The position numbers and the translations under genes are program-made. DNA of 53,786 bases, filler included, from Jimgerdemannia flammicorona (lineage: Eukaryota): assembly GCA_003990765.1 (NCBI GenBank). It is 3 parts of 3 records of this genome, joined end to end, with 100 filler letters (N's around TTAATTAATTAA, not from the genome) between each part and the next. Parts side by side here need not be neighbours in the genome. Positions count along the whole stretch, not along the records: positions 35,927 to 53,786 come from RBNJ01002382.1; 2 more parts are not named here. One strand, given 5' to 3'. The notes beneath the pieces are model-generated. The model did no database searches. It saw nothing but the letters and a program-made list of their open reading frames with translations, and was not told the origin of the DNA. Positions 46,077 to 47,195 of this stretch are shown piece by piece (position 1 is the stretch's first letter; every line of letters begins with the position of its first letter).

Positions 46077-47195
46077 ATGGTAGGCACGATGGGATACGAT
46101 ATCCATCCATCCTGCATTGATAGCGATTTTGTTTATTTGAACTGAGGCGCGGAGAGTGAACGACATTATGGAAAGAAATTCCACCCCTTTACACCCCATT
46201 TCTCACATTGGTATAAAAATCCTCTCTGCACTCCCATAGTCCAAGCGCGGAAAGAAAGTCGTCAAGCAGGAGGAGGTCATTACTCTCGGCCCCCAGGTCC
46301 GCCCTGGCGAGCTCGTTTTCGGTGTTGCCCACATCTTCGCTTCGTTCAACGACACCTTCGTTCACATAACCGATTTGTCCGGCCGTGAAACCATCGTTCG
46401 CGTTACTGGTACGTTCAGGCTCACTCGTTCGTGCTGACAATTGCGGGCAATAGGAGGGGTGGGCATATGTGCACATTTAAGGGAGTGAGAAAGTGTCGAG
46501 GTACTGCGTGTTTGCTCAAAAAGAGATTGTAGCTTTTGTCAAGAGAGCAAGCATTCCATATCGGTGTTCTCCCCTCCACCTCTTACAAATTCCGCCCACC
46601 TTTGGCAAAACAAATGAACCCTTTCCGAGGAAGTCAAATGGGACAAGTGGTGAAACACTTACTCCTATCGACTGCCCAGAAAGCTCACCATGAACCCAAC
46701 CCTTGCTCTCCTTTCTCCTTTCCCACCGCTGGACGTGAATTTTGGATCTGGTCATGGATCTGGAACAGGTGGCATGAAGGTCAAAGCCGACCGTGACGAG
46801 TCGTCCCCCTACGCTGCTATGTTGGCAGCCCAGGACGTGGCACTCAAGTGCAAGGAACTCGGCATCACAGCTCTCCACATCAAGATCCGCGCGACCGGCG
46901 GTAATGGTACCAAAACTCCTGGCCCCGGTGCCCAGAGCGCTCTCAGGGCCTTGGCTCGCGCTGGTATGAGGATTGGCAGGATTGGTACGTGTATTTTCTG
47001 TTTATTTGGTGTGGAATCTTAAGAATTCAGGAAATATTATTGGAGGAATCATCGTGTGTGATCACGTTATTACACACGAAAAAGATAAGAATTTCACCGA
47101 TCCTCTTTTGATTTGTAATGTTTCTAGAGGATGTCACGCCGATCCCCACCGATAGCACCCGTCGCAAGGGTGGTCGCCGCGGTCGTCGTCTGTAA
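46077..47195 (+). CDS. RPS14: 40S ribosomal protein S14 (uS11); exons 46077-46079, 46240-46408, 46769-46984, 47128-47195 = 151 aa
   Basis: [65 protein letters not shown] and [15 protein letters not shown]; all introns GT-AG. Confidence 0.98.
46632..46673 (+). promoter_or_regulatory. Intronic RNA hairpin with GUGAAA loop (candidate uS11-binding autoregulatory element)
   Basis: agtc-aa-atggga-c-aagtg-GTGAAA-cactt-ac-tcctat-c-gact forms three stacked stems. The function is inferred. Confidence 0.5.

Follow-up and report, generated by a model that had tools for sequence, protein, structure and literature searches.

A conserved hairpin in RPS14 intron 2 of Jimgerdemannia flammicorona, a candidate sensor for uS11

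Does the pre-mRNA of a ribosomal protein carry a decoy of the ribosomal RNA (rRNA) site that the protein itself binds? The question is raised by RPS14, the uS11 gene of the fungus Jimgerdemannia flammicorona, which lies in a 53,786-nucleotide (nt) stretch of DNA from assembly GCA_003990765.1 that we analyzed as a whole (the window). The second intron of this gene contains a 42-nt hairpin capped by the hexaloop GUGAAA, the same loop that caps helix 23 of 18S rRNA. We find that this intron is the one retained in RPS14 RNA, that its retention brings an early stop codon, and that the core of the hairpin is nearly unchanged in a distant orthologue. We read the hairpin as a conserved cis-regulatory RNA, most likely a feedback sensor for uS11 that mimics the helix-23 apex; on the evidence below, the chances that this reading is correct are about even.

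Intron 2 is the one selectively retained intron of RPS14

RPS14 consists of four exons on the plus strand (Table 1), with Pfam Ribosomal_S11 matches in exon 2 (E = 7.3e-8) and exon 3 (E = 1.4e-21), and all three splice junctions are seen in assembled RNA contigs of public runs. The original prediction had placed the hairpin within an RPS14 intron, and the RNA-confirmed junction between the two Ribosomal_S11 exons identifies this intron as intron 2, of which the hairpin occupies positions 224-265.

We examined region 46000-47300 in Logan contigs from four RNA runs (X1-X4: two of organism A, one root metatranscriptome and one soil run). The joint that skips the 360 nt of intron 2 was present in all four. 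Contigs on the intron itself were found alongside it. In X1, an unspliced contig (record 3, 46381-46797) runs from exon 2 into exon 3 at a depth of 1303, versus 3952 for the junction contig; the unspliced contig in X2 (record 8, 46427-46802) has a depth of 454 versus 3743, and a contig on intron 2 in X3 (record 15, 46604-46796) one of 2.7 versus 43, all of these depths being rough, per-contig k-mer means. X4 contributed pieces of intron 2 (records 20 and 21). Introns 1 and 3 were only joined across in all of these runs, with no contig on either. Since these two introns never appear unspliced, carry-over of DNA is ruled out as the source of the intron-2 signal. These data show that intron 2 is the one intron of RPS14 that is selectively retained in RNA. 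When it is retained, a stop codon closes the reading frame after nine codons of intron.

It had also been proposed that G|GUGAAA in the hairpin might act as a regulated alternative donor. This idea found no support: no joint starting there was present in the contigs of the four runs (a weak negative, as contigs lose rare forms), and GUGAAA lacks the +5 G that all RPS14 donors share (GUAGGC, GUACGU and GUACGU).

The intron-2 hairpin and its conserved core

Refolding reproduced the predicted 42-nt hairpin exactly, in both position and fold, at -13.8 kcal/mol. It consists of three segments, AGUC/GACU, AUGGGA/UCCUAU (with one G.U pair) and AAGUG/CACUU, topped by the GUGAAA loop. Its fold energy was reached by one of 200 shuffles, and the minimum free energy (MFE) fold of the full intron 2, which as a whole is not unusual (z = -0.15), keeps the hairpin. 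Stability of this degree is ordinary in the window, where 172 of 15,356 sampled 42-nt segments (1.1%) lie at or below -13.8 kcal/mol; introns 1 and 3 contain comparably stable segments at -13.3 and -13.9 kcal/mol. A GTGAAA hexaloop closed by at least four contiguous pairs occurs just once on the two strands of the window, as the hairpin studied here, and once more, in an unrelated setting, on both strands of 80 other loci (222,864 nt x 2, or 446 kb).

These loci are the best 80 of 258 from a metagenome scan that used the exon-2 protein as query. By our own count, 20 are interrupted at the codon position of intron 2, by introns of 47-165 nt. Among these 20 is L004, an AT-rich, RNA-derived metagenomic contig of 1186 nt whose exon-2 protein is 82% identical, N-terminal tail included, and whose intron, likewise placed after RVT-G, contains ...AAAUGAGGGACUAGUGGUGAAACACAUACUCCCAU.... 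The local alignment of the hairpin core with this stretch scores 44, a value that none of 1000 shuffles reached (16.6 +/- 2.3, maximum 27), while outside the core the intron aligns no better than chance (best local score 15). The coding exons of the two genes are 69% identical, their third codon positions 30%, and their fourfold-degenerate sites match at 12/44, as at random; G+C content at third codon positions (GC3) is 0.72 for the J. flammicorona gene versus 0.14 for L004. Because 30 of 33 nt in the block are identical while fourfold sites, third positions and the rest of the intron have diverged, we conclude that selection constrains the nucleotides of the block more strictly than those of the surrounding coding sequence.

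The same figures bear on whether the block could be a chance hairpin in a neutral intron, or a repeat or mobile-element remnant shared by the two loci. Chance would account for the ordinary stability, and a 16-nt apex pattern with up to three mismatches is expected 0.77 times in the window. It would not account for 30/33 identity at the same intron position despite randomized fourfold sites, nor for the failure of all 1000 shuffles. A shared repeat is opposed by the single copy in the window and the single copy in L004, with none in the other 79 loci, and by a 20-nt pattern that gave three hits in bacterial metagenome-assembled genomes in 596 Gb of genome_contigs, about chance by our own estimate, and none in viral_contigs. 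The difference in GC3 argues against L004 being a close relative or a contaminant from the same genome. We consider these explanations scarcely credible. A covariance model built from both copies scores 50.1 and 54.2 bits on them, and found no further copy in the window and the 80 loci (277 kb), where the next match has E = 0.78.

Introns of ribosomal-protein genes often host small nucleolar RNAs (snoRNAs), and intron 2 is long, which would suit a block that forms part of an intron-encoded snoRNA or another stable noncoding RNA. Such an origin is very improbable: conservation is limited to 33-35 nt with flanks that do not align, neither conserved C/D boxes nor an H/ACA pocket with its ACA can be seen by eye in the window or L004, and no Rfam 15 family matches, either at the gathering score anywhere in the window or at E up to 10 within 45900-47400.

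L004 also carries a retained intron. Its left arm (~200-643, minus strand) is the reverse complement of a fully spliced mRNA for a 150-residue uS11, and its right arm (714-1186) is a variant, identical to the left at 301 of 308 nt, that retains just the same intron; a stop codon follows there after six codons. The contig (1-1186) is an inverted duplicate, with its arms joined head to head via their 5' untranslated regions, and is probably a cDNA or assembly artefact.

We compared the 11 base pairs of the window hairpin with L004. Eight are invariant, one changes from G.U to G-C, and two apical pairs are unpaired in L004 when read in the window register; RNAfold on L004 regains five apical pairs through a register shift around a bulged A (1 nt). 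No pair (0/11, from two sequences only) is altered on both sides, so this comparison does not show the covarying stems for which the original prediction suggested a test. No change affects the loop, the unpaired 5'-side C or the unpaired 3'-side AC. Because loop and internal-loop residues are kept when two stem pairs are not, the pattern favors readout by a sequence-specific partner over the mere upkeep of a fold.

The position of the hairpin in the intron is also shared. In the window, the last AG before the acceptor lies at 46682 and the acceptor AG at 46767, leaving an 84-nt AG-free zone that holds CUCAC, the putative branch-point motif. In L004, an AG-free zone spans from the hairpin to the acceptor, and CUAAU is found at 1009-1013; each zone holds no other good branch-point motif. 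The putative branch adenosine follows the conserved block by 19 nt in the window and by 15 nt in L004, and the full hairpin in the window ends ~14 nt upstream of the putative branch point. A hairpin lying shortly before the putative branch point in each species, in an intron of 360 nt next to introns of 160 and 143 nt, could be a constitutive structural aid that presents the branch site or shortens distances in a long intron, with no feedback involved. We think this improbable. An aid of this kind predicts covarying stems and a free loop, but the loop and the internal-loop residues are invariant and two stem pairs are not kept, and the intron that bears the hairpin is the worst spliced of the gene, not the best. 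The 19 same-position introns that lack the element, all of them shorter (47-165 nt), also count against it.

Likeness to helix 23 and the proposed uS11 feedback

The apex of helix 23 is the "690 loop" in E. coli numbering. According to the original prediction, it reads AGAG-GUGAAA-UUCU in fungal 18S rRNA and belongs to the region that uS11 binds, and passages in published papers agree with both statements. A yeast helix-23 oligonucleotide contains CAGAG-GUGAAA-UUCUUG (PMC5148605), and five fungal 18S sequences share the apex GUCAGAGGUGAAAUUCUUGGAU without change, although their lower stems differ (PMC3550802). By itself, uS11 binds a 45-nt helix-23 RNA in vitro with a dissociation constant of 1.5 µM (PMC4019466); helix-23 RNA was also used in PMC5148605.

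We compared the intron apex, AGUG-GUGAAA-CACU, by eye with its rRNA counterpart, AGAG-GUGAAA-UUCU. They share the GUGAAA loop, the 5' closing G and, of the four apical pairs, pairs 3 and 4, and pair 2, an A-U in helix 23, is flipped in a compensatory manner to U-A in the intron. The closing pair is G.U in helix 23 and G-C in the hairpin. Both RNAs are three-segment hairpins, of 45 and 42 nt respectively, and their lower stems are unrelated in sequence. The identity of the loops is suggestive of uS11 recognition, though not proof of it.

During spliceosome assembly, proteins of the U2 small nuclear ribonucleoprotein (snRNP) occupy the stretch upstream of the branch site. In the mechanism that we infer, uS11 in excess of the demand of ribosome assembly would bind the decoy in intron 2, and the bound protein would hinder U2 snRNP at the branch site. 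Intron 2 would then stay in, and the transcript, meeting its early stop, would be unproductive by way of nonsense-mediated or nuclear decay. We liken the proposed hindrance to that exerted by yeast L30, which blocks U2 binding on RPL30 (PMC11585973).

A conserved regulatory element in this place could instead be read by a factor other than uS11, either a YTH/Mmi1-like protein that recognizes UGAAAC (of the TNAAAC class) and directs nuclear decay, or some other reader of the helix-23 loop. UGAAAC (46651-46656) is kept in both the window and L004, within a retained intron, and there is precedent in S. pombe, where intronic TNAAAC motifs of rps2202 and dbp2 recruit Mmi1 to make decay-promoting introns, together with splicing inhibition that depends on a ribosomal protein (PMC4695336). 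In published structural text, uS11 sits on the helix-23 stem, which leaves the loop for another reader, and sequence conservation without covariation suits any sequence-specific binder. However, the intron has one short TNAAAC buried in a 6-nt loop, whereas the rps2202 site is tandem (PMC4695336), and the 33-nt conserved block far exceeds a hexamer. A reader other than uS11 also leaves unexplained that the host gene encodes a helix-23-binding protein. We therefore regard another reader as unlikely, if the least so of the alternatives to uS11; Mmi1-type and uS11 mechanisms could also act together.

Several findings weigh against the uS11 reading. Intron 2 is the longest intron of the gene and slow splicing alone could explain its retention, which is itself gauged by coarse contig depths. 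The intron retained in L004 begins G|AAUAUAG rather than GU, so retention there may have another cause; the retained stretch may derive from a variant whose donor is inactive, or from use of an alternative acceptor farther upstream. Covariation is missing from the stems. When the full hairpin is aligned with helix 23, 13 of 2000 shuffles do as well as its global score and 55 of 2000 as its local score, and unrelated stretches of the window outscore it; because this overall likeness is marginal, we confine the claim of mimicry to the apex. Given the published placement of uS11 on the helix-23 stem, identity of the loops need not mean recognition by uS11. Finally, of the hairpin and loop that the original prediction sought in orthologous introns, both are present in L004, the one distant orthologue with a long intron there, but the element is lacking from 19 further loci that are interrupted at this position, among them the two closest of the best 80 of 258 (L001 and L002, 88% exon-2 identity), whose intron has 52 nt. 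This absence from 19 same-position introns makes the element lineage-restricted.

Autoregulation of S. cerevisiae RPS14B (CRY2) by S14 reportedly goes back to Li et al. in 1995 and Fewell & Woolford in 1999. Published passages describe yeast S14 binding to a structure in RPS14B pre-mRNA and repressing its splicing (PMC3315480, PMC11585973, PMC7732827), and the first two of these papers substantiate the autoregulation that the original prediction had invoked. The yeast system and the proposed one share the uS11/S14 protein family, a stem-loop in the pre-mRNA and splicing as the regulated step, with rRNA and pre-mRNA competing for the same protein in yeast and the same logic proposed here. The yeast structure spans the 5' splice site of a single intron near the start codon (PMC11585973), in contrast to the J. 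flammicorona hairpin, which lies in the second intron, on the branch-point side, and carries a visible copy of the rRNA apex. Regulation in yeast also runs between paralogues (A represses B), with no paralogue seen in the present analysis, and binding by S14 has been demonstrated there, whereas our hairpin is known from sequence and RNA contigs and its binding by uS11 is proposed. It is possible, and we hold this more tentatively than the regulatory reading itself, that the hairpin is an ancient uS11 sensor independent of budding-yeast RPS14B, with a copy of the helix-23 apex set by the branch point so that bound protein would occlude the region where U2 anchors. The element suggests that Saccharomyces is not alone in autoregulating uS11.

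Leaders of bacterial ribosomal-protein mRNAs, as a 2018 review by Meyer is said to recount, mimic rRNA (the Nomura model); there too, the mRNA offers the protein it encodes a decoy of its rRNA site, but the leaders act on translation or transcription, not on splicing. Among eukaryotes, published passages describe excess ribosomal protein acting on conserved structures in its own introns, with the unspliced or unproductive RNA degraded, for yeast RPL30, RPS9A/B and RPL22B, S. pombe rps2202 (S15a with Mmi1), human RPS13, and RPL10a from nematode to human; the proteins and elements of these loops differ from uS11 and its hairpin. The passages on ribosomal-protein feedback that we compared contain no RPS14 element outside budding yeast. 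We found no published description of the intron-2 element, and no paper with its 13-nt core, in the main texts searched, and RPS14 is absent from the main text of a survey of conserved fungal RNAs (PMC8216456).

Ribosomal-protein feedback through the protein's own pre-mRNA has ample documentation, both for bacteria and for a few genes of budding yeast, fission yeast and animals; in eukaryotes, most of the RNA determinants are idiosyncratic, with little conservation. In RPS14, a 33-nt element bearing the exact loop of the rRNA helix bound by uS11 is near-constant across a deep divergence, in an intron that is incompletely spliced. If this element is an ancient uS11 sensor independent of the yeast one, fungi have used splicing to autoregulate uS11 for longer and more widely than the lone yeast example would imply, and the RNA determinant is legible in the rRNA itself. 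The locus would offer a compact, testable model (a 42-nt RNA, one protein and one intron) for how a eukaryotic ribosomal protein discriminates rRNA from a decoy, and it shows that sequence alone suffices to discover intron-retention signals in ribosomal-protein genes of little-studied fungi.

Gene features and other observations in the window

Table 1. Features of RPS14 and its intron-2 element, in window coordinates
Feature	Position	Strand	Basis and details
Exon 1, ATG alone	46077..46079	+	Sequence and RNA contig joint
Intron 1, 160 nt, GT..AG ends	46080-46239	+	Contigs X1, X2 and X4 join 46078/79 to 46239/40
Exon 2	46240..46408	+	Translation SKRGKK...RVT; Pfam Ribosomal_S11
Intron 2, 360 nt, phase 1, after RVT-G, donor GUACGU, acceptor CAG	46409..46768	+	RNA joint
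First in-frame stop (TGA) upon intron-2 retention	46435..46437	+	Read-through translation
42-nt hairpin, AGUCAAAUGGGACAAGUGGUGAAACACUUACUCCUAUCGACU	46632..46673	+	MFE -13.8 kcal/mol, z -3.12
Conserved core, AAAUGGGACAAGUGGUGAAACACUUACUCCUAU, 33 nt	46636..46668	+	30/33 identical to L004 963-997, plus 2-nt indel (insertion in L004)
GUGAAA hexaloop; with C46656 also reads UGAAAC	46650..46655	+	Sequence and printed 18S sequences
Putative branch-point motif CUCAC	46684..46688	+	Inferred; only YTNAY downstream of hairpin
Exon 3	46769..46984	+	Translation ends ...RIGRI; Pfam Ribosomal_S11
Intron 3, 143 nt	46985..47127	+	Joint in X1, X2 and X3; no contig on intron
Exon 4, ends TAA	47128..47195	+	Sequence and open reading frame list

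Intron 1 of RPS14 begins at the fourth nucleotide of the coding sequence. An X1 RNA contig of 4908 nt (~41343-46078) starts ~4.6 kb upstream of the RPS14 ATG and then splices across this intron, so transcripts of the upstream region and of RPS14 either overlap or were merged in assembly. The start of intron 2 (46409-46453) resembles a complete 45-nt intron, with GUACGU, CUGAC at 46434 and AAUAG at 46453. Position 46453 is thus a possible proximal alternative acceptor, use of which would bring in 315 nt and an early stop; no joint using it was present in the contigs of the four RNA runs. The stable segment in intron 3 noted above is a hairpin at 47039-47080 (-13.9 kcal/mol) built on CGUGUGU/ACACACG.

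Another RPS14 intron had come up as a second case of GUGAAA. It belongs to L020/L021, from a GC-rich eukaryote, follows ...KCK, and ends in a -21.8 kcal/mol hairpin (2915-2965) with the tip UUGUGAAAC. The equivalent tip in the related L016 is UUCUGAACC, reading CUGAAC where L020/L021 have GUGAAA, which is not conserved, and we dropped this candidate as chance.

Elsewhere in the window, long open frames on both strands (139-1266, 2613-3086 and 5837-6301) contain a repeating ...LQHCLTSNVALPPM...-like unit, which suggests a tandem or dispersed repeat family, and open reading frames of at least 150 residues look like repeats or mobile-element remnants. An open reading frame fragment on the minus strand (11104-11601) has the motif YIDDFNIY and, by eye, resembles a remnant of a retrotransposon reverse transcriptase.

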